From: a virus
Lineage: Duplodnaviria; Caudoviricetes
Strand: one strand, 5' to 3'
DNA length: 64,000 nucleotides
IMG/VR virus record: IMGVR_UViG_3300042988_001200
Shown: positions 3,464-34,651 of the stretch, one piece after another
Numbering within the stretch: position 1 is the stretch's first letter
Layout: each line of letters begins with the position of its first letter
Translations under genes and position numbers: made by a program
The notes under the pieces: model-generated
The model's input: the letters and a program-made list of their open reading frames with translations, nothing else
The model's database searches: none
Told to the model about the DNA's origin: nothing

Positions 3464-3485
3464 ATTAAGTTTAAAGGAGAGGTCT

Positions 3486-3782
3486 ATGTATTATATCAAT
3501 TACTTAATAACCTATAAGATTCCTATTTCTTTTAGATGGAGTGTTATTTCTTATATTACCTATATAGCTCTATGGTTATCTTTTAGAGATATAGAAAGTT
3601 TAGAGATAAGATTTCATTATATATCTCTAAACTTTAATAGTAATATTTATCTATGCTTTTACTATTCAGAAGAAGGGTATATAACTAATACTAGAATAGA
3701 GGGGAGTATAACTCAATATACATTATTCTTTAACTTAAATAATCTAATGGATAAGATAAGAGAAGCTAAAAATTTAATCTAA
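3486..3782 (+). CDS. Hypothetical protein
   Basis: 98-aa ORF just after ligA and before a terminator; GGAG lies upstream. Confidence 0.55.
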   Translation: MYYINYLITYKIPISFRWSVISYITYIALWLSFRDIESLEIRFHYISLNFNSNIYLCFYYSEEGYITNTRIEGSITQYTLFFNLNNLMDKIREAKNLI

Positions 3783-3810
3783 TAAAGTACCACCCTCATT
3801 CTACAAGGAG

Positions 3811-3845
3811 ATACCCTAGTTATTGACTAGGGTATAACTTTTTAT
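3811..3845. terminator. Intrinsic terminator between convergent genes
   Basis: 10-bp stem ATACCCTAGT-TATTG-ACTAGGGTAT followed by a T run. Confidence 0.75.
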
Positions 3846-3852
3846 TTATATT

Positions 3853-4182
3853 CTAATATTTTAATTGAATATCTACTGGAAAGCCATGAGTACAGTGGTT
3901 ATTATTATATCCTCTAGTTTGGATATAGAATTCATCTTCATCAGTAGGGAAGTTCCTCATTAGATTATCTAGAAGAGTAATAAAGTTTGTACCTCTAGAA
4001 TCAATCCATTTGATTAATACTTGATTCTTATCTGTAGGCTTAATAGTTCCACATTTAGGATGATAAATAGTAAGAGGAAAGTCCCTAGAGTTAATATCAT
4101 TAAGAATCGTATAATCATCCAGTGCTAGAGAGGGACTAATTAAGGATAGAGTGATTAATACGGAAATTGGTAATGCTTTCAT
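3853..4182 (-). CDS. Small exported protein with a Cys pair; paralog of 11970..12287
   Basis: Signal-peptide-like N-terminus (MKALPISVLITLSLISPSLA), plus LTIYHPKC and GYNNNHCTHGFPVDI. Confidence 0.7.
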   Translation of the reverse strand: MKALPISVLITLSLISPSLALDDYTILNDINSRDFPLTIYHPKCGTIKPTDKNQVLIKWIDSRGTNFITLLDNLMRNFPTDEDEFYIQTRGYNNNHCTHGFPVDIQLKY

Positions 4183-4358
4183 ATCTTAGATAGACTATCA
4201 ATATAGTTAGTAATACAATCCTTTACTTCATATAGGGATTTACTAGAGGTAGTAAAAGACCCTTCTGAATCTATAATAAAACCTATGTATTCATTTCTAC
4301 TTCTCTTAATAATATAAAAGATTCCCTTATAGAACTCTTGATATTCATAAGAATTCAT
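4179..4358 (-). CDS. 59-aa protein with a HicB-N-like pattern (not in the ORF track)
   Basis: MNSYEYQEFYKGIFYIIKRSRNEYIGFIIDSEGSFTTSSKSLYEVKDCITNYIDSLSKI; its stop overlaps the next start as ATGA. Confidence 0.6.
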   Translation of the reverse strand: MNSYEYQEFYKGIFYIIKRSRNEYIGFIIDSEGSFTTSSKSLYEVKDCITNYIDSLSKI

Positions 4359-4370
4359 TATATATAGGTA

Positions 4371-4541
4371 TTAGTTATAATAATCCTTAATACTTTGAAT
4401 AAGGGTTTTAATAGTTTCATCTTTATCTTTTCCATTAGCTATAAGACTAAGGTTACTCTCTCTATATATAGCCACCCAGCCATCGGATATTTCCTCTATT
4501 TCAATAAGGTAGCCATCTATTATAAAGGTTTCTGGGTTCAT
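4371..4541 (-). CDS. 56-aa HicB-N-like protein (not in the ORF track); paralog of 5582..5788
   Basis: MNPETFIIDGYLIEIEEISDGWVAIYRESNLSLIANGKDKDETIKTLIQSIKDYYN; it abuts the upstream gene. Confidence 0.65.
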   Translation of the reverse strand: MNPETFIIDGYLIEIEEISDGWVAIYRESNLSLIANGKDKDETIKTLIQSIKDYYN

Positions 4542-5504
4542 TTATTTAGCCTCTAGTTCATAAAAGGAGTATGTATCTTCTAGTAAACAAAAGATTCTAT
4601 ATATAGAATTATCTATTGGAATATAATCTAAATCCAATATAGACTTATCTCTTTTCTCTAATATACTAATTTCATCTGTTATAGGTTCATATATATATAT
4701 AGAGTTAGTTGTAGTTACTATAAGGAAGATATTAACAAAGGGAATGCTTTTAATAAAGGATATAGACTCATTATTAATATTCTTAACAGAGACTAATGTT
4801 TCAGTTCCCGTATCATAATCAAAGTAAAAGGTATAGATATAACTATAATTATCAACCTTACATATATATCTATCACTAAGACTAATGTGTAAATAGTTAC
4901 AATCTAGTTCCTTTAACTCTTGGATATTACTTTCATTAATTAAAGTCTGAAGAGATACAAGGGTATTTATTTTCTTAATTGATATAGGAAAAGGTTCTTT
5001 ATTTAAAGATTCGTTATTTAAATCCTTAATTTGATATACATCAATAAAGCCCTTTTGGTCTAGAATAAAGAGATTGTTTTTATAGATAATGGATTTAAGT
5101 TTAGGATAATAGAGGTTTATGTAGGTTGTTTCTTCCTTTAATAGTTCATATATTACTATGGAAGTAGGTGTAAGTATGAATAAAAGGGTGTCATTATACC
5201 AATGGAAATCAATTATATTATCTTCTAGGGTTATTCTTTTAAAGAAGTTAGTATCAATATATCCATTAGAAAGGACTCTAAGAATGAATAAATCATTAGG
5301 GTCTTCTATAGAATTAAGGATTAGAAGTCCTCTAATTTTATTAACTAGGATTATATTAGAGGTAAATTCTAGGTAAACCTGTTCTATTATCTCATAATCA
5401 GTGTTGGTAATTGATAGATAGTTCTTACCATTCATTAAAGAAGTAATAACAGAAAGAGAGTTATTTATTAACTTACCATCTAATTGGAGTAATTCATTTA
5501 TCAT
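4542..5504 (-). CDS. Hypothetical protein, possible beta-propeller
   Basis: Repeated short hydrophobic beta-strand blocks (ISFIKSIP..IFLIVTTTNSIYIYE, ILDLDYIP). Confidence 0.5.
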   Translation of the reverse strand: MINELLQLDGKLINNSLSVITSLMNGKNYLSITNTDYEIIEQVYLEFTSNIILVNKIRGLLILNSIEDPNDLFILRVLSNGYIDTNFFKRITLEDNIIDFHWYNDTLLFILTPTSIVIYELLKEETTYINLYYPKLKSIIYKNNLFILDQKGFIDVYQIKDLNNESLNKEPFPISIKKINTLVSLQTLINESNIQELKELDCNYLHISLSDRYICKVDNYSYIYTFYFDYDTGTETLVSVKNINNESISFIKSIPFVNIFLIVTTTNSIYIYEPITDEISILEKRDKSILDLDYIPIDNSIYRIFCLLEDTYSFYELEAK

Positions 5505-18390: not shown

Positions 18391-18541
18391 TATTACTTAT
18401 ATACAACTAGTTATATCTATATTTAATAGAGAGGGGGACTTATTAGATTGTATAAGTGAGTATTTACCTAACTCTATATCTGTAATAAGAAGTAAGGTAA
18501 AGGTGGTTTATAAGATGATAGAGAAGCTAGAACTAGACTAA
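18293..18541 (+). CDS. Possible small hypothetical protein; start uncertain
   Basis: Fills the gap up to the giant ORF, but the only in-frame ATG overlaps the previous gene by about 100 nt. Confidence 0.3.
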   Translation: MIILYQLMSNHLMIYSCLTQQPIELDSLKIPNDITYIQLVISIFNREGDLLDCISEYLPNSISVIRSKVKVVYKMIEKLELD

Positions 18542-21500
18542 ATCCTCATACTCAGAGTTATCTATAGTAAGTTCAACTACAGAGTTGTTAGAGACCATAG
18601 CAAAGAGACCCTCTGGTACAGAGAATTCATTAGATATATAATCCCCTTCAAATATAGACTCACTAACTCTAACCATCTCCTCCCATTGAATAAACCCACC
18701 ATCCTCACTATAGATATCTGGGTCATTAGTATCCTGCTCTGTACTATAAGCCTCTGATATAAGTTGCTCATCTATAGCCTCAATAGCTCTTTCTATAATA
18801 GTAAACTCTGATTGGTTATCTGTTATAGGTTGCATCATACTACCAGCTATACCTGCACCTACCATACCAAATAGTCCTGAGAGTACAGCACTAGTTATAC
18901 TCTGAGCAGCTATCCTTTTACCGCCCATAGCATCATAATCTAGAGCTCCTTTATTACTATTAAATAGATATCTTAGTTTCTCATTAGAGGAAAGTTGACT
19001 AAGTTTAGCTTCTCTATACATCTGAGCTTTATATGAGCTTAGATGAGATAGAGACATCATAGAGTTAATAGCACTCTTCTCTACAAATGGAGCTACTACA
19101 GAAGCACCTAGAGTAAAACCTATTTCTCTAGCTGCTGCTAACCCTATAGCCTCACCTAAATCTCCATCTGTTTCACTAAGAGCCATATTAAGTTTAAAGG
19201 AGCCTCCTATCATAGACTTAGTTAACATAGCTTTAGGGTCTATACTAGTTCCCTTCTTACCGTAGGCTATAGAAAAGATAGTACCCCCCACTATATTACC
19301 TATAGCGTCTGGGTTGATAGTCCCATTAATAACAGCACTACCTATAGTGGTTAGAGCTAGAGGTAATGCTAGTTCCATAAAGTTATTAATGTTATTAAAC
19401 TGTACTGCCTGGGATAGATTATTAAAATTAGGGGTAAGGGACTGGGCGTAAGCATTAGAACTACCTGTATCTACCTTGGTTCTAAGACTGGCTAGTTTAT
19501 GCTGTCTATACTCTGATGTGGCTTTATTATATTGTCTCTCTATCTGTTCTATCTCTGTTATAGAGAGACCATGATTCTCTCCTAATAGAGCTTTAATAAA
19601 ACTCTCTCCCTCTACATAAGAATCTATCTCCTCTTTTTTTCCATACATCTTAGTAAGGAACTCGTTAAGAGCCCTCCCTTTTGCCATAGAGGCAGTGGTC
19701 TCTAACTTATTTGATAGATACTTCTCTAGAGTGGTATTAATAGTATTACCATTTTCATCCTTATACTCCATACTAGAACCAGACTCAATGGCATTAAATA
19801 GAGCTAGTCTAGATTGAAAGTCTTTCTTAGCTTCTTCCTCTGGCATGTTAGCTAGTTTGTATGCAAATGTATCAACTATTTTTCCATTCTCCTTTTTAAT
19901 ACCAGTCATAAGGAGAGGGATATTTCCTTTAAAGTTAGTCTTTAAAAATTCATTAGAGGCAAAGGTATCCCATACAGCAGGTATAGCATGAGAGCTTAGT
20001 TTATTACTTCCAGCTAAATTAAGCATGGTATCCCATATATCAGCTCCTAGTAGTTCAGTATTAGAAGAGTTACCTCCCATTAGGCTAATAGTTTTTTGTC
20101 TAGCTCCTTCCATATCTGTAAATCTACTTAACCCCTCTCCATATTTACCCATCATCTTATCGGTAAATTCTGTAGTAGTATTAATAATCTCTAACATACT
20201 AAGAACCTCTCTAGCTCCTCCTTTATTTGTATCTAGGTTTAAGTAATTAGATTTAATATCCTCTTCATTTTTATTAAAGATTCTAGATAGGATATGAAGG
20301 TTTCTAGAACCCTCTGCTGTATCTGAATTAAATCTTTTATTAATGAAATCTTGTATATCTTCTCCATTTACCTGGTCTCTATCCTTACCTAACTCCCTAC
20401 TTATTATCCCTATATAACCAGAGAAGATGGTGTCTAAGAAGCTACTTTGTTCCCCTTTATCATATCCACTTGCTCCTGTAGTTATGTTATATCTATAGGC
20501 TATAACTAAGGATTCAAGGTCTCTCTTTACCTTTAAAGCTCCAATATCAAAGGCTGATATCTCCTCTTTATTACCAAATGTATTAAGTTCTTGTACTAAT
20601 CTTTCATATTGGGTGTTATCAATACTAAGGTCTGAGGCTAGAATCTGCTCATTCTTAGTAGAAGTAGCCCCTCCCCAGAAGGATGAAACTATTACCCCAT
20701 TCATTAATTTAACTCTTCCATCCTCACTTAAGGTCTCTCTATTTCTCACTAAAGAGCCTAGTTGCATAAATACATCCATACCAACATTAGAGCCAGAGGG
20801 ACCGAACTTACCTGCTTCTCTAGTGATAAGAGCTCTTTGTTTATCTGGATTATCACTTAGGGACTCATATTCACTAGATAGTCTCTCCATATTAGCTATG
20901 AAATCACCTCCAGCTTTAGGTTTAATTCCATCTCTTAATAGTTGGTTTATGCTTTTTATAAAGGCTAGGATTCCCTCTCCTGTATCACTATTTCTCTTAA
21001 TAGAGGATACAAAGTCCTCTTCTTTTATCCCTTGAGAATTATAGAAATCATTATCTCTAAGGAACTGTTTAGTAGATTCCTCTTGAATAATAGAGGATAG
21101 AGCTAGTAAAGGACTCTCTTGATATAAAGTTCCTACAAAGGTGTTATAGGTTTTACCTAGTACATCACCCCCAGCTTTACCCATAATCTTAACCATCATG
21201 TCATAACCAGTAAGAGACATATTAACCCCTGCCCCCTGTCCTAATATAGATTGAAGACTACTTACACTCTTTAATCTAGCTGCATATAAACCACTAGCCC
21301 TAGCTAATATCTCCTCCTCTTGTTCCTTAGATATAGAAGTAGAGTTAGGGGCAATAGATTGTATAGATTTGTACATAAGATCTAATAAATCCTTCTGAGC
21401 CTCCTCTCCCATAAGTAATATACCTAGATAAGTATTTCTATTAGCATTAGTCTCATCTTGGGCTAATACCTTTAATCTATCTTGTAATAAATGAAACCCA

Positions 21501-24500
21501 GAATGGGCATTAGATACAGAAGCTAGATAGCTAAATAAAGACATATTAGGACCATTATTACCAGTAGTAGGTATACCTGTTTGTTGCTTAGATAAAACAG
21601 TAGTCTCTGTATTTATAAAGACATCCTTAAGGATGCTATTCACTTTCTTAATAGAAGAGCCCGTACCCCCTAATCCCCCAAATAGACCTCTACCCTGTTC
21701 TATAAAAGTAAGAGCTACATTCATACTTATATCATTCTGTTGAAAACCTTCTGGTCCTCCTAAGAAATGTTCTACTCTTATACCTAGGTAGTTAGCCACC
21801 TCTTTCTTAACAGCTTTACTAAAAGAGGAACTTTCTAATTGATTTCTCCAGGTGTATAACTTAGCCTTATTATTAGCTATCCTTACTTTATGTTCCTCTA
21901 TCTCACTCTTAAGGATATGAACCCTAGTCTTTTCTTCTTTTATACCTTCTTCTAAAGCCAATCTATCTTCATATGAGGATAAGGGACCTAGACCCCCTAC
22001 TTTATTATCAATGCTAGTATCTAGAGCCCTTATTCTAGCCTCTGTAGTCTTAATCATAATACTGTCACTCTCTATAGACCTTTGTAGGTCCATAAACTGA
22101 CTAAAGATAGTAGTATAGGGGTCCCCATCAAAGTCCCCTATATTCATAGTTAAAAGGGATATGGGGGATAGTAGAGATAATCCTTTATTCCTTTCCTCAT
22201 CGTATTGAACCATAGAATCCTGTCCTATAGCTTGATTAAGTAGAGATATATCTTGTATAACAGTAAGAGCCATTCTTTGTTGTTCACTACCTCCAATGGG
22301 GGGACTTCTAAATCCTAAGACTTCAATACTATCTCTCATGTCTAGATGGTTCATCATTTTTTCCATTAGAGCTATAGAGTTAGATAAAAGACTTTCATTA
22401 AGAGTTAGTTTATATTTATTTACTACTTGTCCTTTAACTACTCTAGACTCTGTAACAGCTAGCTTAGGGTTTATATTTAATAAAGAATATATATTTATAT
22501 CTGGGTCAATAGATTTAAATATCCTTTCTAGAGCTTTAAGGGATGTGTCATTAATAGATTGGGTCTTAACTATCTTTCTAAGTATGGCTAGCCCACTAGA
22601 TAAATCATCTAGTCCCTGTTTATTCTTATTAAGCATATCTATTTGAGATTCTGAGTTCTTAAAGGTATCTCTAGCCCTTCTACTAAACTCTTGACTTACT
22701 GAACTAGAGCTCTTAATATACTCTCCTAGAGCTGTCTCTATAACTATAGCCTTCTCCTTAATATCAGATATACCCCCTAGGTATTTATGCTCATCAAAGG
22801 AGAAACTTTTAGTTTTTTTATAAGTACCTTCTAAAGATTCAATAGTTTGAAGTAATCCAGGTTTATCTTTAGTACCCTCCAAATGTTGATAAATAGAACT
22901 ATATTCCTCTTTAAATCTTTGATTCGATTGAGGTATAATATTCTCGAATCTATATTGAATATAAGCCAATTTCATTTTTATTGGCTCATAGGTAATATTT
23001 TCATTGGCCTCTATATATTTTTGATGTTCTTCTATAGCATTACCTTCTTTATCTTTTCCAAACCATTTAGGAACTTTAATACTATCTATATCCTTATATA
23101 GAGTTTCTAGTTCACCCTCAGATAGAGATGGGTTCTCTAGTTTAAGTTGAGATATAACTAGTTCTTGTTTTCTCTTTTTAAGTTCATCTAATTGATTTTT
23201 AGTATCAGCTTGATAGGTAGTAAATATATTTCTTATAGCTTCTTTAAACAGCTTAATTTCTTTACCTATATTAAGAACTTTATCCTTTAGACTTCTATGT
23301 TGAGAAATTATAGAACTCCTTTGTTCTAGTAGAGTAGTTTTTCTTACTTCTATTAGTTTATTAATAGAGAGGGTTATAGATTCTTCTAACTCTCTTAATT
23401 GATTAAGTTCAGAGTGATACTCTATAGAGTTTCCAGGATGAATTTGCTTTTTAAACTCTTGTATCTCACTTCTTATATTGGCTCTATTAATCTCTAAAGA
23501 TTCTATTAGTCTAGTAAACTCTCTTTTTTCAATAGATTTATCTATTCCTATATCTCTAAGAAATAAAGAAGCGGCTTTCTCTTCTCTTATAATTATTTCT
23601 TTATACTTGGATATAGACTTAGATAAACCCTGGATAGAGGATTTAGTATCTACTTCACCTAATCTACTTTGTATTTCTTTTATAGCTTTACCATTAATCT
23701 CATCATATTTAGATTTAAGTTCCTTTTCTCTAGACATTAGATAAGTAATAACAGGGGAGTACCTATCTAAACTAGATAATCCTTCTATAGAATTTATCCT
23801 AGTAGATAAGTGTTCTATTTCTCCATCTAACTTTTTAATTTGAAGCTCTAATGGACTTTCATATTCACTAATCTCTTGAGTAAGAGCTAATTGCTTTCTT
23901 TCTAATTTAGCTTTATACTCTGTTAAATCAGCCCATTCACTATCGGCTATCTCTTCATAAGGAGCTATCTTTAAGAAATAAAGTCTATTTTCTAATTCCC
24001 TCTCTTCTAATAAAAGTCTAGAAGAGTCTTGTTTATACTCTTTAACTTTGTATAAATGATTAAGTTTATTTTTTACTTCTGTATATTCTTTATCTATTTT
24101 GTTAATATATTCTGTACTATGAATTCCTAAGTGTATATTTCTCTTAATCTTAGATAAGATTTCTAATCTAGATTTATAACTAGAAATATCTTCTTCTAGA
24201 ATTCTATAGCCATTGGAACTTGGATTTAAACCCATCCAAGGAGGAGTTTCCAAAGCACTTCTATCATATATTTTTATACTACTTTTAATTTTATTTATAT
24301 ATTTTAATCTACTTTCAATTTCTCTAGAGTATTGGTATATAAGTCTTTTAGTAGTACCTAGCCAAGTTTCTCCTTCTAATTCACTTATAGTTCTATTAAC
24401 ATATTTATGTTCTTCTTCAAGTTCTTGTTGTATAGATTCTAGTTTCTTTATATCTCTTTCTCTAATTTCCTCGTCCCTTTTTTTAGCTTCTGGTGAGGAT

Positions 24501-27500
24501 AGAAACTCTATAGTAGCATTTCTATATTTCATTTCGAGTTCACTTAATTCTAGTTGTTTACTCTCTAAGGAATTATATCTACTACCATAATCATCTAGAT
24601 AAACACTCTTAGAAGTAGAGTCTATACTCTGTTGAATACTAGTTCTAGCTCTATTTAATCTATTTAACTCATTCTCTAAATCACTTATAGAGTTATTACT
24701 ATACTCATTTCTACTTTTATCTAGTTCTTTCCTTAATACTATAGAGGTAGAATCACTAGGTTTAATGTCTGGAAATAATTCTCTACCTACTAAACTATTC
24801 TGTTCTAGAGTTATATTGGCTCTCTTTATATATAGTTCTTGTTCTACTTTTCTAATTCTATCTTCTATTTGTTGTAGATTATTACCATGAATTAGTAAAT
24901 CTTCATTATTAGGTCTAACCATTATAGTTCCACTTTTACCCTCTTCTTTAGCCTTTTGTATCTGTTCTATAAGGTTTATTTGTTCTTCTCTTAATTTAAT
25001 TAATCTATTCTTATCATCTCTAATAGAATTTAACTCCTCACTTATTCCAATTAAGGAGGAGATTCTATCTCTTTCTAGTTCTAATATCTTAACCTTACTC
25101 TTTATATAACCATCTTCTAAATCAATATCCTTAGAGTTCTTTATTAAATCTAGTTCATATTCCAATTTAGATAAGTTATCTCTAGTGGGTCTCATCCCCT
25201 TAACCTTACTTTCTTGTAGCTTTAATCTATAGATAATACTATCTGAACTATCGATTTCTTCTATAGTTCTTTCTATATAATGAATCTCTTTATTAACATC
25301 TGATAGGTTACTACTATATATTCCTCTAATAAAAGAGGCTATTCTCTTAACTGTTTTATTATCTGGAACTATCTTACTTAATGATTTACCTTCTTCTACT
25401 ATCTTAGTTAATCTAGTTCTTTCACTATTTAATTCTTTAATCCTTTCATTAATAAGGGTTTTATCTATACCCTCACTAGCTCTTTTAAGACTTAATAGCT
25501 CTAATCTCTGTTTATTTAAACTCTCAACTTGGCTTTCTATATCAACTAAATAGCTATTTAGATAATCCAAACTACTAGATATATCAAAGCTACCACTCTT
25601 TTCTAGAGCCTTAAAACTATTTAATATACTAGATAACTCCTCTCTTTTATTTATTAAAGAAGGGAGACTGTTTATTTGATTAATCTTTCTAGATAATGAA
25701 TCTGGGTCATTACCACTAGAATTAATTCTTTGTAATTCATTTAAATCTCTTAACTCCCTATTTATCTCTCTAAAGGTAGGAGCATATGCTTCAATATGGC
25801 TCTGAACTCTCTTATAATATTCACTGAACAATACAGATACTGGTATAGAATCCACCCCAGTAGCTACTTGTAAAACCCTTCTTATATTACCTAGTTCCAA
25901 TTGATTAGCTTTACTTAATCTCTCTTTAAATATAGAACTAGCCTCATTTACTAGTTTTAATACTTCTTCTGGGAGATTATAATAAAGGTCTTCTTGTATA
26001 GATGGAAATATGGAATAATCAACTAGATTACTTTGAAATATAGAGAAGAATATATTTAAATCCATACCTGCTGGACCACTAACTCTATTATTAATGTCTA
26101 GAGTCATCTTATATAAGAACTCGGAAGGGATATTATATCTGTATTCATTATTTAAGAAAGGCTTAGTTGTCTTCTCATAAACTATACCTTTATTCGTCTT
26201 AATCCTATTTATTTCATCTTCTAATACCTCTAGTTCTATAAGAAAGATTCCCTCTTTATATACTTTAGAACCCTCACTTAATCTTTTCCATTTATTGAAT
26301 TTAGTCTTATCTCTTTTATATGCCTTATTTTCCTCTATATCTCCTTCCACTAATCCGCTTCTTTTTATCCTTTCAGCCTCTAGTTTAGCTAGTTCTACAG
26401 CTAAAGAATCTCCCTGATTCTTACCTATTTGTATATTAGATAGGAGTTCAAGTCTAGATAAAAGGCTATTAGCCTGTCTATTAAGGGGTTCTATAACAGC
26501 AGTATCTTCTTGGTTTATACTCCCTAACTTACCAATAAGAGAGTCCACTTCTTTCTTTATAGTTAGAACTTCATCAATATACGACATACCTAAAGGAGAA
26601 AGTCCCCCTCTAACTGCTAATAAAGCTGCTCTAATAACATTCTGTTCCTTATAAGAGCTACTAGAATTACCTATATTCTCTAGTAAACTAACTAATTCAT
26701 AACGTTCAGGACTAGCACTAGTATATCTATTAAGAGCCTCTTTAGCTAATAGAATACTACCATTAGGTATTAACCAAGAAGCTGCTGATGAGGTTACAGC
26801 TCCACTATGTCTAGTTTTAAATCCAATAGCAGCTTGAGCTCTAGTACCAGCACTAGCCTCTGCCATAAGATTAACTATACCCTGGTCTCCAAAAGCATAG
26901 GAGTAGAACTTCTTAAGTAGTATAAGTTCTTCTTTATCTAGTTCAATAACACCTGTACCTTCTTCCTTAGCTCTAACAATCTTATCTCTAACATTAGACA
27001 TAGCAGTACCAGGAGCAAAGGCACTAGCTAGAAATATGGTTCTACTTACTATCTCATCAATATAAGAACCATAGGCATCACCTAATCCTTTAAGTTCAGC
27101 TCCACTCATAAGATAACTATAATACTTCTGACTATAGTCCAGCTCTAGTCTTACCTTACCCCCTATGTCATTACTACTATCCTCTGACATATATATCTGA
27201 GGAAGACTAAAGGCAAAGCTCTTATAGTTTAACTGGTCTAGTATAGGGGATACAGAACCAGCTCCAAAGGGTTTATCACTATGTAATTGATAGTACCTAC
27301 TTATATCTAATAACCTTCTAGAACTTATATTATCTAATAAAGTAAGAGCCCCAGTTATATCAAATCCAGACCCCATCTTATCTTTCATATCTACAATAAT
27401 CCCTCTTATAGCCTCATTCTCTGATGGGTTATAGGTCATTAATTGATTAATCTTTTCTATGGTATCTATCCTACTCTCAGGTGTAAGGTTATTACTATCT

Positions 27501-30500
27501 AGCTCCTTTATTAATATATTAACTACATTATTTACTAGAGCTCCATATGACTCATAGTCCTTCTTATATTGATTTAAATAGGCTGTAGTCCTAGCATCTA
27601 CCCCAGCATATATACCTAAGAACTTACTCTTATGTAATTGAGAACCTAGTCTTATATCTGATATGTCATATACTTTTTTATCTATCCAATCTCTATCCCT
27701 TATATCCCCACTTACACTATGTAAAGTTGCACTATCTGATACAACAGATAACATATTAGCAACTATAGTTCTTAATGAGGATATAGACCCTTGTTCTTGG
27801 AAGGATGAACTTACTTGCATAAGGGGTTTAAGTAAGTGCTGATATTCCAGAGCTCCTGTAGACTTAGAACCTATAGACTCCTTACTCTCAGAGGCTAGTA
27901 GGTCTGTGAATAATCTTATAACTGTAGATTGAGTAGTAAATCCTCTTACCATAGCTCTAACAGCATTAAGATAATCTAAAGATTCCTTCTCCTCTTTATC
28001 TAAAGATGTTAATGACCTTTTCTCTAATAGAGAACCCCTCTCTAGTTTATTAAGGTCCACATCCCCCATAATAGAAGCTATTTGTTTAATAATTTCATTG
28101 TTATTAAAATCTATTTCTGTAGGTATGGTTATGCCATCATTATCATATTTAGATAGTTGGGCTATAAGGTCTAGGGAACCAGCTAGTATAGAAGCCTCTC
28201 TTTCAAAGGGGTTATCTATTCTAATAAACTCTCTACCCACTAGACCTTTACCTTCTCCTAGATCTGATACTAGTTTTCTCTCTAACCATGAAGTGATATA
28301 ATTAATACCCTCTTGTTCCCCTTTAGCTGCTTTAAGTAACATCTGAGAATCTAGTAGAGCTAAGGAAGGTGTCTGTTGAGTATTAAACAATCCCTTTGTC
28401 TTAGATACTAGAGCATTACCAAACATAGAACCAAACTTAGTTCTTATATCTTGGTACTTGTGGTAATTAGGGTCACTATCATTGAATATGGCATTTATAG
28501 CAGTATCAAAGTCCCCTAATCCAGTAATAGCTCCTACTAATTCAGAGGACCCGTTTAAATGACTAATAACAGTTCCTAGAGCCTGATTCCTAAAGAAGGA
28601 ACCCATTTCCCCTTTAATACTAGATTCAAATAGAATCGTATTAATATCCTTCTTTACATCAGAATCCATCCACTCATTACCAAAGGCTAGGGCTAAGGAT
28701 AGTAATAGTTTATTCCCTTTCTTATTAGATATAGTATTAGGATTAAACTCACTTATAAGAGAACGTAATAGCTGTTCGTTTCTTACTATATGGGAACCAT
28801 GAGAATAGAAATGACTCTTTAAGTTAGTGGGGTTAAAAAGACCAAATATAGAGCCCACATCTACTTTTGTATATCCATCCTGAGTCTTATTGAATTGGGC
28901 AGCTAGATAGGAGAAGAAGTCCATGTTTTGATATCTACTATCTTTAATATCCAGGAAGTCAGTGGATGTGAATTTAAGTACAGCCTTAGCTAGAGTACCA
29001 ATACCCTCAACTCTTCTACCCCCCTCTAGAATAAAGGAGCGGTTATATACCATTTCCCATATAAGCTGGTTATTATCAGCATTACCTGTTAATTGTTTAG
29101 AGCTTACTAGATATTCTATAGAGTTAGCTGCATTCCTATGCCAAGTCTGTCTATCTAATCTAGAGACATTAGGTAAATCATCTATAGTTCTAAAGTTATC
29201 TATTACTCCATTAAGGAATGCCACCTGGTCCCTAGAGTCTACCATTGATTTAAGGACATAATGTCCAGACTCTCTATCTAAAGAATAATACTTATTAAAC
29301 TCTGTACCTAATACTGCTTGTTTAAGAGTAGATAAAACATCCTTTGATTGATTAATAAGCTCAATAGATTGTTTAACTCCACTAGTTGTTTCACTTATTA
29401 ACTCACTAGAGTTACCCCATACTAGAACTCTATTAGTATCAGTATCAAAGGTTATGATATCTCCTTTACGGGCTAGTAGTTTACCATTAGAGACCCAATC
29501 CTCTGATAGTTTAGAGGACTTCTGTTTCTTCTCTGCTTTCTCTATAAAGCCACTCATAGTTCTAATCTTAGACATAACCTCCACTCTTTCATTTAGAGGT
29601 ATGTTCTTATAGCCTTTATATTGTTTTATTAAAGAATGTAACTCTTTAATGTCATCATTACTTCCACCATATAGGGGGTTGGCATAGGCATAATCACTAA
29701 AGTCTCCAGTTAGTTGAACTAATATAACTGGATTAAGTCCTTCTGTTGTACCAGTAAACCCCTTGGTTCCAGAGGCTAAACTATCAGCACTTCTCGCTCT
29801 ATATAACAACATAAAGCGAGCTAATGAAATGTCCCCTCTTCTATATTCAAAGTCTTCTTCTTTAAATCCAAAGTCTTCTTTTAACTCTTCTTTAGCTTGT
29901 TCTACTATAGATGCTAACTCACTGGTCATAACCCCTCTAAATCCACTAGCATTTATAATTCCAATACTTAAGTCCTCACCTAAGTAACTCTCAGCTTTAA
30001 GATATAGATGATTTAGTTTATGTAATATAGTTTGTTTAGATTGATTATTTAATCCTTTTGTTCTATCTATAGCTATTTCTATTAGTCTATTAAAGGAGTA
30101 AAGTCCTATATTATCTTCTTGAACTACTATTTTCAGATTATCCAGGACCTTCTTTGTATTAGTATCTATACCAGAATTTGTAGTGTTAAGTCTATTAAAT
30201 AGGGTTTCTACTACTTGAACTTTAATATTTAGACTTCTCTTTTCTATAATATTATTAACATTACCCTTTGTTAAAAGGGCATAGGATATTTCTTTATCTA
30301 TTTCATACATACCCCTAGTTCCTAGTTTATTCTTCATTCTTTGGGGTACTTGACTAACTTTCTTAGCAACATTATAAGTATAAGTAACTATTTCATCACT
30401 ATATTTAAAGCCACTTCCATCAATAATTCTTTCATATTTACTATCAATCTTTTGGATAAGACTAGATTCAAAGGTACTTTTACCCCCCTTTCTTCTATTT

Positions 30501-33500
30501 CTATATTCATTTAATCTATTAACCATAGCTTCTATACTATGAATCTCTTCATTATATAGAGCTACTTTATACTCATTATAGATAGATTCAAAGATATATC
30601 TATCAAACTCATCTCTTTTAGTTACATATCCGACCCCACCATATTTAGCAAACTCTACTAAAGCTATATCTCCTATAGGAGTTTTCTTAATTCCATGTAT
30701 AGATAAACCCCCTTCTTCTATACTTTCACTTATAGAACCACCTTCTGCTACACCTCTAATAGCTCCTTCTGTACCCTTACCAGTAGTATCTGAAGGACCA
30801 AATATATAAGGTTGGGCTATAGCAAATCTAAATATATTGCTTATACCATCCCCTCTTTTCTTTAAATTACTAAGGAAAACTCTTTGAGACCTATTAATTC
30901 CATATAAAGGAGTTTTGAATTCAGCCTGGTTATCTGTATAAGTAGATACCTGTTTCTGTGTAATAAAGGGTTCTAGTAGTCCAGCTTTAACTAACTTAAT
31001 GGCATTAATAAAGCTATCATCGTACATAAATTCCCTTCTACTCTCTATAATTCCAAGAGCAATGTCTGATTGAAATGTATGTATATCCCCTATTCCCATA
31101 CTTAAATCGAACCCTTCTCTTATACTTTCTATAACAGCTTCCTTACTAAAGAGTAGTTGTCTCTTATTAGATTCAGATAAATTACTATCTTTAAGAGCTC
31201 TATTAATAGTTCTAATAGCTTGTAATCCTTTAATAACCCTAGTTCTTATATCTAAGTCATTAGAGTTATCTACTAATTGATATGACATAAGGGAAGAACT
31301 CTTAAGCTGAGAGACTATATCCTCTCCCCCTCTAAGGTTTAAAGAGGCTTTAAATGAGCCACTAATACCTATTCCATGTCTCTGTTCAAACTTTGTTATT
31401 AAATTAGTTATCTCTATATCTGATAGGGAACTAGACCTTAAGAAGTCTCCAGCTATGCCATTATATCTAGATACTCTCCCATAAGTTAAATACTCTAGAT
31501 AATCTAACCCAGCTTTACCTAACATACTATTACCCTGAACATTCTCCTTTTTACTTAGAGACCTCATATAATGCAAAGGTTGAGTTATTAAAGCTCTATA
31601 AGTCATCTCCCCAGCTAAAGAAGATATAACGTTAGAAAATGTTTCTATAGGTGTTAGTAATAAACTCTCCCTGCTCTTTAATGGTTTATATTGAAGACTA
31701 TAAGAACCATCATCTCTCCTAGTAAAGGAATCTTTACCATAAGGAAGATTTATAGTCTCTTCTTGATTATTAATAAATAGACTTTTACCTACTAGCTTAT
31801 TCTGGTCTATAAGATATATAAACCCACTTTTATTATTTAATCCCCCTTTTAAAGCTGTAACTCTAAAGGAGGAATTATTATATGTAACCCCAGCTTTATG
31901 TCCACTTATTAATGAACCTGCATTAATATCTACCTGTATACTTATTAGTTCTCCATGTTGACCATAAGATTTCTTTATAGATATACCTTCCCCTTTACCT
32001 AGTCCCATTTCTTTATTAAGGGCTTCTAGTCTAGCTATAAGAGTGTTAAGAGAAGCTCTATCCACTTTATTAGTCCATGAGGCTTTACTAGAGGATAGAG
32101 AACTATCTACATTACCTACTTTAGTTCTAGTTAATCTAAACCACTCTCTTTCTAGGTGTTGACCCTCTGAGGCTTTAAAGTCCTCCATCTCCTCTGACAT
32201 ACTATCTTTACTTCTATATAGAGTCCCCTCTCTTTCACCATATCTCCTCATATCTCTAGCTAGATTAATAATACCCACTTCCCCACTAGTAGTATCATCC
32301 CCTACATCAAAGGCTAAGGAGGAACTACCAAAGTTAGATGAACCTTGTATAGCTCCTATATGTTTAAAGGAATCATCCTCCCCTCTATACCTTTGTATGG
32401 CAAATATATTCTTTACATGACTCATAGTCTCTGTAACCTCTATAATATTCCCACTAGTTATAGCTAGTATCTGAAGGGCTGTTCTATAACTAGACTCACT
32501 ACTTACCTTATTATAGAATCTGGATAATTTATCTCTAGGGTCAATGAATTTATCTATAGATACTCCATAGTTAACTCCCCCTTTATCTAATCCTAAAAGA
32601 TTAATAAGGGCTTTAGAGTCTCTATTTACTGCATTAGTAAGAGTTCTTAGAGAACTACTGTATCTATCTTCAAATACCTTAGAACCTAATCTAACAGTAG
32701 ATTCATAATCTAGGGAGGTGTTCTCCATTCTACCTAGGAGATAACTAACTTTCTCTATAGTAGGTTCTAGAACTTTATCTCTATAGTTTCTAATATCAAC
32801 AGAGACATAGGCTCTTCCCTTATTAACTAGCTCAAAGAACTTATATTGAATCTCACTTCTATAGATAGAGTCTCGGTTATTACCTTTATTCCTTATTAAG
32901 AATGTTTCTATAGGTATAGTTCTAGATTTACCAGAGGGACCAAACTCTCCACTATAATCCCCTTTCTTACCATAATAGATATCATCATCTAGTTGAAGGA
33001 GCCATACCTGGTTAAGGTTAGCGTATAGTTCTATAGGTTTATCATATGTAGATTTACTAGAAGCATATTTAATCATAGTCCTAAGTCCCTGTCCTATATC
33101 CCCGGCATTACCTATTTGATTACCAGTAACAGCTCTTCTAGTTTTAATCTCATTAAGAGCTATCATCCTAGCTTGGAGGTATAGATGTGTATCTATATAC
33201 TCCTGTTTCTTCTCCTTTGTCATAGAACTAGAGAAGGAGCTTCTTATATCTAAAGCTGTTCTTTTAACTCCATCCATATCTGGAATATAGTAGCTAGATG
33301 AATTAGGATTTATTCTATCTAGTCTATTATGAAGAATGATTACTTCTTCATAGTTAGACCCTGCTACTGAAGGACTATTACCTACTGGAGAAGTTAAGTT
33401 AAAGGAGCCTAACATAGCAAACTTCTCAGTAGTATATAACTTAGGGTGATAGCTGCCACTATCTATAAACTCTAGGTTCATATTAGGTAGATAGTTAGCT

Positions 33501-34651
33501 ATAGTGTTATTTATATTACCTGGTGATGTAAGAGTCTCTACATCATTAACTCCTAGGGATATAAGTTTCTCTTTAACAATATCCTTTTGAACTCTATAAA
33601 TCCTTTCCATAATAATAATATTAGGGCCAAGGATTTGATGACCCACCATATTAGCATTACTTCCATTAGAGGGGGCAGCTAGTCTAATACTAAACTTAAA
33701 GTCTCCAGAGGCTATTCTACTAGATTCCCTCTGTAGTTTAGATACTAGTACATCAGATATAGTCTTATTCTGAAGTTGAAATAGGTCTATAGTTAGTTCT
33801 TTATCGGCACTTTCTATAAAAGCAATAGCCATTCTCACACCGGGTTTATATACATAATCACTCTTATCTAGTAACCTAGTGGAGAAATCTTTGACATAAG
33901 AAGTAGATGTAGTAAACCCATAATCCATCCTTTTTAATAGAATCTCTGGATCTGTTCTTATTAATTCATCATGTATCTTGTTAACTCTATTAGTAACTTG
34001 ATACTCTTCTCCAGTTAATAAGTGATTTAAAACCCATCTTCCCTTAGCCATTCCATCTAAATCATTAATATTAGGATTCTCTTTTAGTATCTTAAGACCC
34101 CCATATATGTTCTTATTAACTTCATTACTAACTACTTCAGTAGTGTCATGGTCAAATAAATATCTATATGCAACACTGGAAGTATACCTTTCATACTCTA
34201 TTCGGCGCTTATCCTTTTCCTTCTCAGATAGAGTTGACTCAAAGAAACCATCATTTAATCCAATATTAAACTCTCCAGTTATACGATTAATGGCCTTTAT
34301 CCCACTAGTTGATAGGTTGTATAAATCACTTGAAAAGGCAGAGAATGCGTTTCTAGCTAGAGCTCTAGCTGCTTCTTCATATACATCTACCTTATCCTGT
34401 AGAATATCCTGTTTAACAACTTGTTTTATATAATCCCTTCTTTGAACCTCTTCCTTCTCTGTGTAATAACCCCTATAGTTCTTACTAGAACTTACTCCAA
34501 AATCCTGATTATATTTATCATCATATTGTTCATTAAAAAGGAAATGGGTATTAATAGTATCTTTTAAATGGTCTCTTATTCCTTTCTCATAGAAAGAACC
34601 ACTTAATATTCTATTATCTGTAGGGTTATTACTCCAATTAGGATAGTGCAT
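18533..34651 (-). CDS. Giant 5372-aa protein: tandem PLD domains, two-barrel RNA polymerase and tape-measure-like helical regions (putative virion RNAP)
   Basis: PLD motifs H402PKLY...GSFN and H745VKN...G770SSN. RNAP motifs G1638LNPVILVQLTGDFSD, G2610FKTRHSG, R4115SP, G4172DFDGD, LG4499KTYN and D4574GIKPKAG. A long E/K/L/I-rich coiled coil and Gly/Ala hydrophobic segments at about 5094-5273. Confidence 0.8.
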   Translation of the reverse strand: MHYPNWSNNPTDNRILSGSFYEKGIRDHLKDTINTHFLFNEQYDDKYNQDFGVSSSKNYRGYYTEKEEVQRRDYIKQVVKQDILQDKVDVYEEAARALARNAFSAFSSDLYNLSTSGIKAINRITGEFNIGLNDGFFESTLSEKEKDKRRIEYERYTSSVAYRYLFDHDTTEVVSNEVNKNIYGGLKILKENPNINDLDGMAKGRWVLNHLLTGEEYQVTNRVNKIHDELIRTDPEILLKRMDYGFTTSTSYVKDFSTRLLDKSDYVYKPGVRMAIAFIESADKELTIDLFQLQNKTISDVLVSKLQRESSRIASGDFKFSIRLAAPSNGSNANMVGHQILGPNIIIMERIYRVQKDIVKEKLISLGVNDVETLTSPGNINNTIANYLPNMNLEFIDSGSYHPKLYTTEKFAMLGSFNLTSPVGNSPSVAGSNYEEVIILHNRLDRINPNSSSYYIPDMDGVKRTALDIRSSFSSSMTKEKKQEYIDTHLYLQARMIALNEIKTRRAVTGNQIGNAGDIGQGLRTMIKYASSKSTYDKPIELYANLNQVWLLQLDDDIYYGKKGDYSGEFGPSGKSRTIPIETFLIRNKGNNRDSIYRSEIQYKFFELVNKGRAYVSVDIRNYRDKVLEPTIEKVSYLLGRMENTSLDYESTVRLGSKVFEDRYSSSLRTLTNAVNRDSKALINLLGLDKGGVNYGVSIDKFIDPRDKLSRFYNKVSSESSYRTALQILAITSGNIIEVTETMSHVKNIFAIQRYRGEDDSFKHIGAIQGSSNFGSSSLAFDVGDDTTSGEVGIINLARDMRRYGEREGTLYRSKDSMSEEMEDFKASEGQHLEREWFRLTRTKVGNVDSSLSSSKASWTNKVDRASLNTLIARLEALNKEMGLGKGEGISIKKSYGQHGELISIQVDINAGSLISGHKAGVTYNNSSFRVTALKGGLNNKSGFIYLIDQNKLVGKSLFINNQEETINLPYGKDSFTRRDDGSYSLQYKPLKSRESLLLTPIETFSNVISSLAGEMTYRALITQPLHYMRSLSKKENVQGNSMLGKAGLDYLEYLTYGRVSRYNGIAGDFLRSSSLSDIEITNLITKFEQRHGIGISGSFKASLNLRGGEDIVSQLKSSSLMSYQLVDNSNDLDIRTRVIKGLQAIRTINRALKDSNLSESNKRQLLFSKEAVIESIREGFDLSMGIGDIHTFQSDIALGIIESRREFMYDDSFINAIKLVKAGLLEPFITQKQVSTYTDNQAEFKTPLYGINRSQRVFLSNLKKRGDGISNIFRFAIAQPYIFGPSDTTGKGTEGAIRGVAEGGSISESIEEGGLSIHGIKKTPIGDIALVEFAKYGGVGYVTKRDEFDRYIFESIYNEYKVALYNEEIHSIEAMVNRLNEYRNRRKGGKSTFESSLIQKIDSKYERIIDGSGFKYSDEIVTYTYNVAKKVSQVPQRMKNKLGTRGMYEIDKEISYALLTKGNVNNIIEKRSLNIKVQVVETLFNRLNTTNSGIDTNTKKVLDNLKIVVQEDNIGLYSFNRLIEIAIDRTKGLNNQSKQTILHKLNHLYLKAESYLGEDLSIGIINASGFRGVMTSELASIVEQAKEELKEDFGFKEEDFEYRRGDISLARFMLLYRARSADSLASGTKGFTGTTEGLNPVILVQLTGDFSDYAYANPLYGGSNDDIKELHSLIKQYKGYKNIPLNERVEVMSKIRTMSGFIEKAEKKQKSSKLSEDWVSNGKLLARKGDIITFDTDTNRVLVWGNSSELISETTSGVKQSIELINQSKDVLSTLKQAVLGTEFNKYYSLDRESGHYVLKSMVDSRDQVAFLNGVIDNFRTIDDLPNVSRLDRQTWHRNAANSIEYLVSSKQLTGNADNNQLIWEMVYNRSFILEGGRRVEGIGTLAKAVLKFTSTDFLDIKDSRYQNMDFFSYLAAQFNKTQDGYTKVDVGSIFGLFNPTNLKSHFYSHGSHIVRNEQLLRSLISEFNPNTISNKKGNKLLLSLALAFGNEWMDSDVKKDINTILFESSIKGEMGSFFRNQALGTVISHLNGSSELVGAITGLGDFDTAINAIFNDSDPNYHKYQDIRTKFGSMFGNALVSKTKGLFNTQQTPSLALLDSQMLLKAAKGEQEGINYITSWLERKLVSDLGEGKGLVGREFIRIDNPFEREASILAGSLDLIAQLSKYDNDGITIPTEIDFNNNEIIKQIASIMGDVDLNKLERGSLLEKRSLTSLDKEEKESLDYLNAVRAMVRGFTTQSTVIRLFTDLLASESKESIGSKSTGALEYQHLLKPLMQVSSSFQEQGSISSLRTIVANMLSVVSDSATLHSVSGDIRDRDWIDKKVYDISDIRLGSQLHKSKFLGIYAGVDARTTAYLNQYKKDYESYGALVNNVVNILIKELDSNNLTPESRIDTIEKINQLMTYNPSENEAIRGIIVDMKDKMGSGFDITGALTLLDNISSRRLLDISRYYQLHSDKPFGAGSVSPILDQLNYKSFAFSLPQIYMSEDSSNDIGGKVRLELDYSQKYYSYLMSGAELKGLGDAYGSYIDEIVSRTIFLASAFAPGTAMSNVRDKIVRAKEEGTGVIELDKEELILLKKFYSYAFGDQGIVNLMAEASAGTRAQAAIGFKTRHSGAVTSSAASWLIPNGSILLAKEALNRYTSASPERYELVSLLENIGNSSSSYKEQNVIRAALLAVRGGLSPLGMSYIDEVLTIKKEVDSLIGKLGSINQEDTAVIEPLNRQANSLLSRLELLSNIQIGKNQGDSLAVELAKLEAERIKRSGLVEGDIEENKAYKRDKTKFNKWKRLSEGSKVYKEGIFLIELEVLEDEINRIKTNKGIVYEKTTKPFLNNEYRYNIPSEFLYKMTLDINNRVSGPAGMDLNIFFSIFQSNLVDYSIFPSIQEDLYYNLPEEVLKLVNEASSIFKERLSKANQLELGNIRRVLQVATGVDSIPVSVLFSEYYKRVQSHIEAYAPTFREINRELRDLNELQRINSSGNDPDSLSRKINQINSLPSLINKREELSSILNSFKALEKSGSFDISSSLDYLNSYLVDIESQVESLNKQRLELLSLKRASEGIDKTLINERIKELNSERTRLTKIVEEGKSLSKIVPDNKTVKRIASFIRGIYSSNLSDVNKEIHYIERTIEEIDSSDSIIYRLKLQESKVKGMRPTRDNLSKLEYELDLIKNSKDIDLEDGYIKSKVKILELERDRISSLIGISEELNSIRDDKNRLIKLREEQINLIEQIQKAKEEGKSGTIMVRPNNEDLLIHGNNLQQIEDRIRKVEQELYIKRANITLEQNSLVGRELFPDIKPSDSTSIVLRKELDKSRNEYSNNSISDLENELNRLNRARTSIQQSIDSTSKSVYLDDYGSRYNSLESKQLELSELEMKYRNATIEFLSSPEAKKRDEEIRERDIKKLESIQQELEEEHKYVNRTISELEGETWLGTTKRLIYQYSREIESRLKYINKIKSSIKIYDRSALETPPWMGLNPSSNGYRILEEDISSYKSRLEILSKIKRNIHLGIHSTEYINKIDKEYTEVKNKLNHLYKVKEYKQDSSRLLLEERELENRLYFLKIAPYEEIADSEWADLTEYKAKLERKQLALTQEISEYESPLELQIKKLDGEIEHLSTRINSIEGLSSLDRYSPVITYLMSREKELKSKYDEINGKAIKEIQSRLGEVDTKSSIQGLSKSISKYKEIIIREEKAASLFLRDIGIDKSIEKREFTRLIESLEINRANIRSEIQEFKKQIHPGNSIEYHSELNQLRELEESITLSINKLIEVRKTTLLEQRSSIISQHRSLKDKVLNIGKEIKLFKEAIRNIFTTYQADTKNQLDELKKRKQELVISQLKLENPSLSEGELETLYKDIDSIKVPKWFGKDKEGNAIEEHQKYIEANENITYEPIKMKLAYIQYRFENIIPQSNQRFKEEYSSIYQHLEGTKDKPGLLQTIESLEGTYKKTKSFSFDEHKYLGGISDIKEKAIVIETALGEYIKSSSSVSQEFSRRARDTFKNSESQIDMLNKNKQGLDDLSSGLAILRKIVKTQSINDTSLKALERIFKSIDPDINIYSLLNINPKLAVTESRVVKGQVVNKYKLTLNESLLSNSIALMEKMMNHLDMRDSIEVLGFRSPPIGGSEQQRMALTVIQDISLLNQAIGQDSMVQYDEERNKGLSLLSPISLLTMNIGDFDGDPYTTIFSQFMDLQRSIESDSIMIKTTEARIRALDTSIDNKVGGLGPLSSYEDRLALEEGIKEEKTRVHILKSEIEEHKVRIANNKAKLYTWRNQLESSSFSKAVKKEVANYLGIRVEHFLGGPEGFQQNDISMNVALTFIEQGRGLFGGLGGTGSSIKKVNSILKDVFINTETTVLSKQQTGIPTTGNNGPNMSLFSYLASVSNAHSGFHLLQDRLKVLAQDETNANRNTYLGILLMGEEAQKDLLDLMYKSIQSIAPNSTSISKEQEEEILARASGLYAARLKSVSSLQSILGQGAGVNMSLTGYDMMVKIMGKAGGDVLGKTYNTFVGTLYQESPLLALSSIIQEESTKQFLRDNDFYNSQGIKEEDFVSSIKRNSDTGEGILAFIKSINQLLRDGIKPKAGGDFIANMERLSSEYESLSDNPDKQRALITREAGKFGPSGSNVGMDVFMQLGSLVRNRETLSEDGRVKLMNGVIVSSFWGGATSTKNEQILASDLSIDNTQYERLVQELNTFGNKEEISAFDIGALKVKRDLESLVIAYRYNITTGASGYDKGEQSSFLDTIFSGYIGIISRELGKDRDQVNGEDIQDFINKRFNSDTAEGSRNLHILSRIFNKNEEDIKSNYLNLDTNKGGAREVLSMLEIINTTTEFTDKMMGKYGEGLSRFTDMEGARQKTISLMGGNSSNTELLGADIWDTMLNLAGSNKLSSHAIPAVWDTFASNEFLKTNFKGNIPLLMTGIKKENGKIVDTFAYKLANMPEEEAKKDFQSRLALFNAIESGSSMEYKDENGNTINTTLEKYLSNKLETTASMAKGRALNEFLTKMYGKKEEIDSYVEGESFIKALLGENHGLSITEIEQIERQYNKATSEYRQHKLASLRTKVDTGSSNAYAQSLTPNFNNLSQAVQFNNINNFMELALPLALTTIGSAVINGTINPDAIGNIVGGTIFSIAYGKKGTSIDPKAMLTKSMIGGSFKLNMALSETDGDLGEAIGLAAAREIGFTLGASVVAPFVEKSAINSMMSLSHLSSYKAQMYREAKLSQLSSNEKLRYLFNSNKGALDYDAMGGKRIAAQSITSAVLSGLFGMVGAGIAGSMMQPITDNQSEFTIIERAIEAIDEQLISEAYSTEQDTNDPDIYSEDGGFIQWEEMVRVSESIFEGDYISNEFSVPEGLFAMVSNNSVVELTIDNSEYEDLV

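Follow-up and report, generated by a model that had tools for sequence, protein, structure and literature searches.

The 64,000-nucleotide stretch of viral DNA analyzed here (the window; Duplodnaviria, Caudoviricetes, IMG/VR record IMGVR_UViG_3300042988_001200) contains a sole enormous open reading frame (ORF), at 18533-34651 on the minus strand, which encodes a protein of 5,372 amino acids (P0002). Near the head of this giant protein lies a predicted two-lobed module of the phospholipase D (PLD) superfamily which, judging from its modeled fold and the residues shared by its relatives, very probably retains an intact active site of the PLD type. In the giant-protein family of Ma-LMM01-like myoviruses to which the protein belongs, the module is a constant N-terminal feature. 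We propose that it is an active PLD phosphodiesterase with two HKD motifs, delivered by the virion and acting most likely on nucleic acid, a reading in which, taken as a whole, our confidence is about evenly divided.

The elements that define the module are the following.

32162..33868, minus strand: two-lobed PLD-superfamily module (residues ~262-830), delimited by an AlphaFold2 model and structural superpositions
33137..33868, minus strand: N-lobe (residues ~262-505), which alone superposes on Nuc, NucT, Zucchini and BfiI
33746..33820, minus strand: β1-type motif FIESADKELTIDLFQLQNKTISDVL (residues 278-302), quoted in an earlier sequence-only reading of this DNA and present
33746..33820, minus strand: first strand-loop-helix of the N-lobe (FIESADKELTIDLFQLQNK...), with invariant or almost invariant I288, Q292, Q294 and N295
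33398..33448, minus strand: HKD motif 1, HPKLYTTEKFAMLGSFN (residues 402-418), H402-x-K404-x4-E409-x5-G415-S-F-N418
33347..33349, minus strand: E435, an invariant acidic residue 17 residues past N418
32162..33106, minus strand: C-lobe with helical linker (residues ~516-830), which explains the doubled aligned length against two-lobed PLDs
32333..32419, minus strand: HKD motif 2, HVKNIF...GSSN (residues 745-773), H745-x-K747...G770-S-S-N773
32279..32281, minus strand: E791, an invariant acidic residue 18 residues past N773

The motif strings quoted in the sequence-only reading, including G770, are found in the ORF at the residues that it gave. Compared with the consensus HxK(x)4D(x)6GSxN, motif 1 is near-canonical (H402-P-K-x4-E-x5-GSFN, with E replacing D), and motif 2 has no D and carries a 22-residue spacer between its HxK part and GSSN. 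The pattern H.K.{8,30}GS.N occurs exactly twice in the 5,372 residues, against a mean of 0.046 copies in the shuffled protein, and two copies less than 600 residues apart arise in 0.02% of 5,000 shuffles. E435 is the candidate partner of the catalytic histidine, by analogy with the active sites of Nuc and Streptomyces PLD, where an acidic residue holds that histidine. The sequence-only reading placed the two half-sites at 32330-33900, a span that does contain the motifs; the module itself reaches to nucleotide 32162, slightly past the lower bound. Its location at the "N-terminus" is likewise right in that the module lies near the protein head, and inexact in that ~260 poorly conserved residues come first. 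This leader (residues 1-261; 33869-34651, minus strand) is conserved in the closest 7-10 relatives only and could be a virion-targeting or processing region.

The argument for one two-lobed fold comes from structure prediction. An AlphaFold2 model of residues 240-830, built from a 17-sequence alignment, has a mean predicted local distance difference test score (pLDDT) of 82.3 and a predicted template modeling score of 0.84. VIA-align was run exhaustively against 48,161 Protein Data Bank (PDB) representatives, with a second pass over the list returned by Foldseek, and ranked vaccinia F13 at the top (Z 15.2-15.4, root mean square deviation (rmsd) 3.7-3.8, 273-274 residues aligned), followed among other two-lobed matches by phospholipase D 7e0m (Z 14.4), PPK1 (13-14.3), the phosphatidylserine synthase PssA of E. 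coli (13.6-14.0), PLD4 (13.2-13.3), PLD3 (13.2) and PLD1 (13.2), with Tdp1 lower (9.2-9.7). Matches to two-lobed PLDs cover model residues 23-591 with 270-290 aligned positions, whereas single-lobe PLD proteins match residues 20-267 only, over 135-145 positions (Nuc, Z 11.8, rmsd 2.8 over 137 residues; NucT, 11.4-11.6; Zucchini, 10.8; BfiI, 9.6). Because the aligned length doubles against the two-lobed enzymes, both lobes must superpose at once, in the canonical orientation that joins both HKD motifs, and in the model H402 and H745 would be juxtaposed at the lobe interface. The proposal that the two HxK...GSxN half-sites belong to a single PLD fold is thus borne out by the model and by the simultaneous superposition of its lobes. 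A Foldseek search of the module model, which the sequence-only reading had suggested as a check, gave weak E-values (best 3.6e-3), and its best 50 rows were all PLD-superfamily entries; the ten nearest ESM Atlas clusters were, without exception, PLDc_2 families. Motif 1 is modeled as a short hairpin of the usual kind (strands 166-169 and 172-176) and motif 2 as a long β hairpin (strands 508-516 and 522-531), which accounts for the 22-residue spacer and for the variable insertions that relatives carry at this place.

Conservation singles out the same residues. When 1.84 billion cluster representatives were searched, by word index and exhaustively with HMMER, no more than ~42 related clusters emerged. 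Nearly all are proteins of 3,500-5,400 amino acids in which the match begins at residue ~150-330; the few short matches resemble fragments. In an alignment of 39 module sequences that are 23-52% identical to the query and have a mean column identity of 23%, H402, K404, N418, H745, K747 and N773 are invariant, as are G271, Q292, I340, N344, G431 and E435, and an alignment focused on the second half-site adds E791. Each lobe therefore retains a set of His, Lys, Asn and acidic residue (H402/K404/N418/E435 and H745/K747/N773/E791) within freely divergent flanking sequence. Loss of the His/Lys pairs in homologs, which the sequence-only reading had named as grounds for abandoning its proposal, is not seen, as both pairs are invariant in the 39 relatives.

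The only place in which the module was seen is the head of giant proteins from Ma-LMM01-like myoviruses, 3.5-5.4 thousand amino acids in length. When the far end of the protein served as query, seven further giants came up, all of which bear the module and both motifs, and among 14 IMG/VR contigs of 8-252 kb that contain it the frame runs on for at least 3 kb past the module in 13. In one IMG/VR relative (L005:3001-7320), the long frame shifts at about nucleotide 4416, right after the PLD module; this is probably an assembly frameshift and could be a split form. No shorter proteins with the polymerase-side region were returned by a word-limited search, which is no proof of their absence.

The window comes from a myovirus of the Ma-LMM01-like type, with a contractile tail. 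Next to the giant gene, in divergent orientation, are genes for the portal, major head, sheath and baseplate, and matches among 50,697 phage records are restricted to Microcystis phages of the Ma-LMM01/MaMV group (Fukuivirus). A virion RNA polymerase of a crAss-like or N4-like podovirus was considered and rejected, since the window encodes a tail sheath and baseplate and the relatives are Fukuivirus myoviruses. The giant ORF belongs to the ortholog family of Ma-LMM01 gp080, for which no reads were recorded at early time points of infection and a rise was recorded at 3-6 h, placing it in expression class B5 (PMC5780444, supplement). A late-rising transcript agrees better with synthesis for the next virion than with a role in early take-over; together with the structural-gene neighbors, middle-to-late expression indicates that the virion probably carries the module and delivers it along with the genome. 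The hydrophobic segments near the C-terminus are a further, indirect pointer to such delivery.

If the module works as the studied HKD enzymes do, its two homologous lobes would pack around a pseudo-dyad, each contributing a His-Lys-Asn-Glu set; by that analogy, one histidine would attack the phosphorus of the phosphodiester, giving a phospho-histidine intermediate, as in all HKD enzymes studied, and the other would protonate the leaving group. We infer a phosphodiesterase activity on the strength of this likeness. The virion-carried module would then enter with the genome and, alongside the remainder of the giant protein, nick, end-process or exonucleolytically cut incoming or host DNA or RNA. 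Of the candidate substrates, nucleic acid is the most likely, at about even odds, and sequence comparisons lean weakly toward it. Searched against PDB sequences, the family profile matches PLD4 and the nicking-joining enzyme of poxvirus virions (E 0.02) and nothing else; NCBIfam models recognize DpdK in 12 of the 39 relatives (best E 1.4e-4), NucT in five, DrmC in four and ClsB in one; and the Pfam model RE_NgoFVII matches two relatives.

Several results weigh against this interpretation, either in its structural or in its functional part. On the query itself, Pfam PLDc_2 matches residues 397-422 at E 0.012-0.077 and 13-16 bits, compared with a cut-off of 27; 27 of the 39 relatives have a PLDc_2 match (E up to 1; best 5.9e-9) and 13 have a PLDc match. 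The C-lobe alone is matched by Pfam in one of the 39 members, at E 0.19, and a search with its profile against PDB sequences returned nothing. Aligned with each other by hhalign in local mode, the two lobes reach a nonsignificant E of 0.14, with a best path that pairs H402 with H745, GSFN with GSSN and E435 with E791; global mode gave a meaningless alignment. Since sequence methods recognize the first half-site alone, the second lobe is identified as PLD by the predicted model and by its four invariant residues. As to function, the nuclease-leaning E-values are marginal and centered on the short HKD motif, and the lipid enzymes PssA and PLD1 are tied with nucleases in structural Z, within ~1-2 units. 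The isoelectric point of the module ranges from 4.9 to 9.5 among relatives, so that there is no consistent basic character and charge is uninformative about the substrate. A literature search found no virion proteomics for members of the Ma-LMM01-like family. Finally, infection by Ma-LMM01 is reported to bring no significant change in host transcription (PMC5780444), which argues against a nuclease that degrades host DNA or RNA in bulk and makes a local role on the incoming genome or its transcripts seem more likely than host destruction.

The tie in structural Z leaves room for a lipid substrate. A virion-borne phospholipase could cut the host membrane locally at the site of tail penetration and DNA ejection and help protein and DNA across the cytoplasmic membrane, in a logic paralleled by the capsid-tethered phospholipase A2 of parvoviruses. 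Lipid-acting PLDs are among the best structural matches (7e0m at 14.4, PssA at 13.6-14.0, PLD1 at 13.2), ClsB is matched in one relative, the gene adjoins the structural module and the same polypeptide has hydrophobic segments at residues 5090-5112 and 5247-5273. These segments, however, lie ~4,300 residues away from the PLD module at the hydrophobic C-terminus, and profile matches run ~20 to 1 for nuclease-type PLDs, even though NCBIfam is rich in lipid-enzyme models. Cultured members of the family infect Microcystis, and cyanobacterial membranes consist mostly of galactolipids, with phosphatidylglycerol as the sole major phospholipid; membranes so poor in phospholipids would offer little substrate to a PLD lipase. 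On this evidence, we regard a phospholipase as rather unlikely, if the most credible of the alternatives to a nuclease.

The breadth of the PLD superfamily also admits other phosphodiester bonds, such as a protein-DNA or DNA-adduct linkage of the kind attacked by Tdp1, nucleotide second messengers used in host defense, polyphosphate or phosphodiester-linked envelope polymers. The superfamily spans such chemistries, and Tdp1 (9.2-9.7) and PPK1 (13-14) are among the structural matches, but no sequence-profile match to these families was obtained and Tdp1 and PPK1 are not known to have full HxK...GSxN...E sets, which we count against an activity of this type; we consider it unlikely. PPK1 reappears in an argument of a different kind, that the module is a catalytically dead PLD-fold scaffold or docking element comparable to FAM83, MITD1 and the C-domains of PPK1. 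Noncatalytic PLD folds (PPK1, FAM83B, MITD1 and TrmB) are indeed among the good matches, and F13, the best structural match, has a degenerate first motif. Yet dead PLD folds typically lose active-site residues, and here all eight are invariant in a family whose mean column identity is 23%, which makes a scaffold very improbable.

Comparison with known systems sets the module apart from each of its nearest counterparts. With poxvirus F13 and K4 and with PLD3 and PLD4 (PDB 9fhk, 30ie, 8v08, 8v05 and 9vbj) it shares the two-lobed fold over ~275 residues, at an rmsd of 3.7-3.9 and a sequence identity of 11-13%; K4 is a virus-encoded nuclease packaged in virions, and PLD3 and PLD4 are 5' exonucleases. 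Unlike these proteins, the module is ~570 amino acids long, has long helical insertions and a 22-residue hairpin in motif 2, and forms part of a giant bacteriophage protein by fusion. Nuc of pKM101 (1bys/1byr) and NucT of Helicobacter (6ehi) superpose on the N-lobe over 135-137 of ~155 residues, at an rmsd of 2.8 and 17-19% identity, but they are single-HKD endonucleases whose active site is built from two identical chains, whereas the module has two diverged lobes in one chain. DpdK and the DISARM protein DrmC, the commonest NCBIfam matches of the relatives (12 and 4 of 39, marginal and motif-centered), are bacterial defense proteins rather than phage virion proteins. Among described phages, the counterpart is gp080 of the cultured Microcystis phage Ma-LMM01 (YP_851094.1, 3,562 amino acids), also present in MaMV-DC, MaMV-DH01, MaMV-CH and MaMV-DL, which is of the same family and architecture: its PLD module lies at residues 175-634 (E 8e-102 against the module profile), with motifs H287/K289...GTMN and H566/K568...GSSN, and its GDFDGD lies at 2536. 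Like the window gene, gp080 adjoins capsid and sheath genes, and it is annotated as hypothetical. The two proteins are ~27% identical in the module; the window protein is 1,800 residues longer, mostly owing to a lineage-specific coiled-coil insert.

The PLD superfamily and virus-carried PLD nucleases, exemplified by poxvirus K4, are already known. New are a very divergent PLD branch that is exclusively and obligatorily fused to a giant, GDxDGD-bearing phage protein, and the presence of a PLD module in phages that were published as being without RNA synthesis enzymes. The sequence-only reading knew of no fusion between a PLD domain and an RNA polymerase (RNAP) among the characterized virion RNAPs, and our literature search likewise found no paper on PLD fused to a virion-type RNAP; neither the module nor the fusion was found described in surveys of polyvalent proteins and jumbo phages, in the Ma-LMM01 and MaMV papers, or in the P23-45 paper with its supplements. 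Phages of the Ma-LMM01 type control toxic Microcystis blooms, and their largest gene, which takes up ~7-8% of the genome, is annotated as hypothetical; its PLD head is the first testable enzymatic handle on it. Should the module prove to be a nuclease that enters with the genome, phages would have a device of a new kind for take-over or template preparation, to which the poxvirus virion nicking-joining enzyme is the only, and loose, parallel; should it prove to be a lipase, no earlier case of a tailed phage carrying a PLD-type enzyme to breach membranes would precede it. The second lobe, which evades all sequence models, is also useful for bettering PLD family profiles.

The sequence-only reading took the giant protein for an RNA polymerase, for which we did not find confirmation: an invariant GDxDGD loop was found, and fold and profile tests gave nothing. 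The loop is located as follows.

22121..22138, minus strand: GDFDGD loop (residues 4172-4177), which always co-occurs with the PLD module

GDFDGD matches the DxDGD metal-binding loop of two-barrel RNA polymerases. Exactly one GD-x-DGD is present in each of 47 full-length or near-full-length relatives, ~1,000-1,400 residues before the C-terminus in those that are full length, with G, D, D, G and D invariant. Past it lie two further invariant motifs, K-x-LGKAGG-xx-LGKTYN and QLLRDSIKPK (residues 4494-4503 and 4570-4579; 20915-21172, minus strand), in which G, L, G, Y, N, Q, R, D and K do not vary among 34 relatives; both motifs are predicted to lie in long helices and may be bridge-helix-like. 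Among PDB sequences, phmmer with residues 3500-5372 found nothing relevant, a 34-sequence profile of the C-terminal region matched coiled coils only and no polymerase, and a profile built from 47 sequences for the 87 residues that surround GDFDGD matched nothing but the vitamin D receptor, spuriously. An AlphaFold2 model of residues 4040-4720 (681 residues) has an overall pLDDT of 72, falling below 50 around the GDFDGD loop. With this model, Foldseek returned nothing meaningful beyond coiled coils (phi14:2 gp66 ranked 36th at a meaningless E of 1.0) and VIA-align returned coiled-coil hairpins only, with no double-psi β-barrel.

Giant virion RNAPs (P23-45 gp96, phi14:2 gp66 (PDB 6vr4) and N4 gp50) offer a parallel, as phage proteins of very large size by which an enzyme enters the cell together with the DNA; in the window protein, the fold and profile searches did not find their two-barrel polymerase fold. 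A precedent for such a fusion is gp96 of Thermus phage P23-45, a virion polymerase fused to a tail-lumen or tape-measure protein (PMC10770324); neither a PLD domain nor the Microcystis phages come up in the searchable text or supplements of that paper. Phages of the Ma-LMM01 type have been described as lacking their own RNA synthesis enzymes (PMC9927357). A more ambitious, and in our estimation improbable, scenario is that a PLD nuclease and a polymerase-like core share one ejected, membrane-anchored polypeptide and work in cis: during genome entry, the nuclease would nick, resect or unblock the DNA end that goes in first, and the enzyme delivered with it could then start the first transcription without host factors. 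If this were true, the protein would be an all-in-one machine for ejection, template preparation and transcription, of a kind undescribed for any phage.

Elsewhere in the giant protein, conserved blocks extend over residues 240-2700 and 4100-5300. Residues 831-1640 (29732-32161, minus strand) form a conserved block that joins the PLD module to the blocks on the GDxDGD side and has no match in Pfam, PHROG or the ESM Atlas. Between the conserved blocks, residues ~2700-4000 (22652-26554, minus strand) form a coiled-coil-rich, lineage-specific insert of ~1,300 residues, for which BLAST found a match in none of 48 relatives. Near the C-terminus, the two hydrophobic segments at 5090-5112 and 5247-5273 are rich in Gly and Ala (18833-19384, minus strand; Kyte-Doolittle hydropathy above 1.4 over 19 residues) and look like the membrane-inserting segments of tape-measure or ejection proteins.

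Near-identical DNA is present in freshwater, freshwater-sediment and subsurface metagenomes, and none of the sequencing runs that contain it is listed as RNA. The G+C content of the window is ~32%, compared with ~45% in Microcystis phages, a difference that suggests that the host of this phage may be other than Microcystis.

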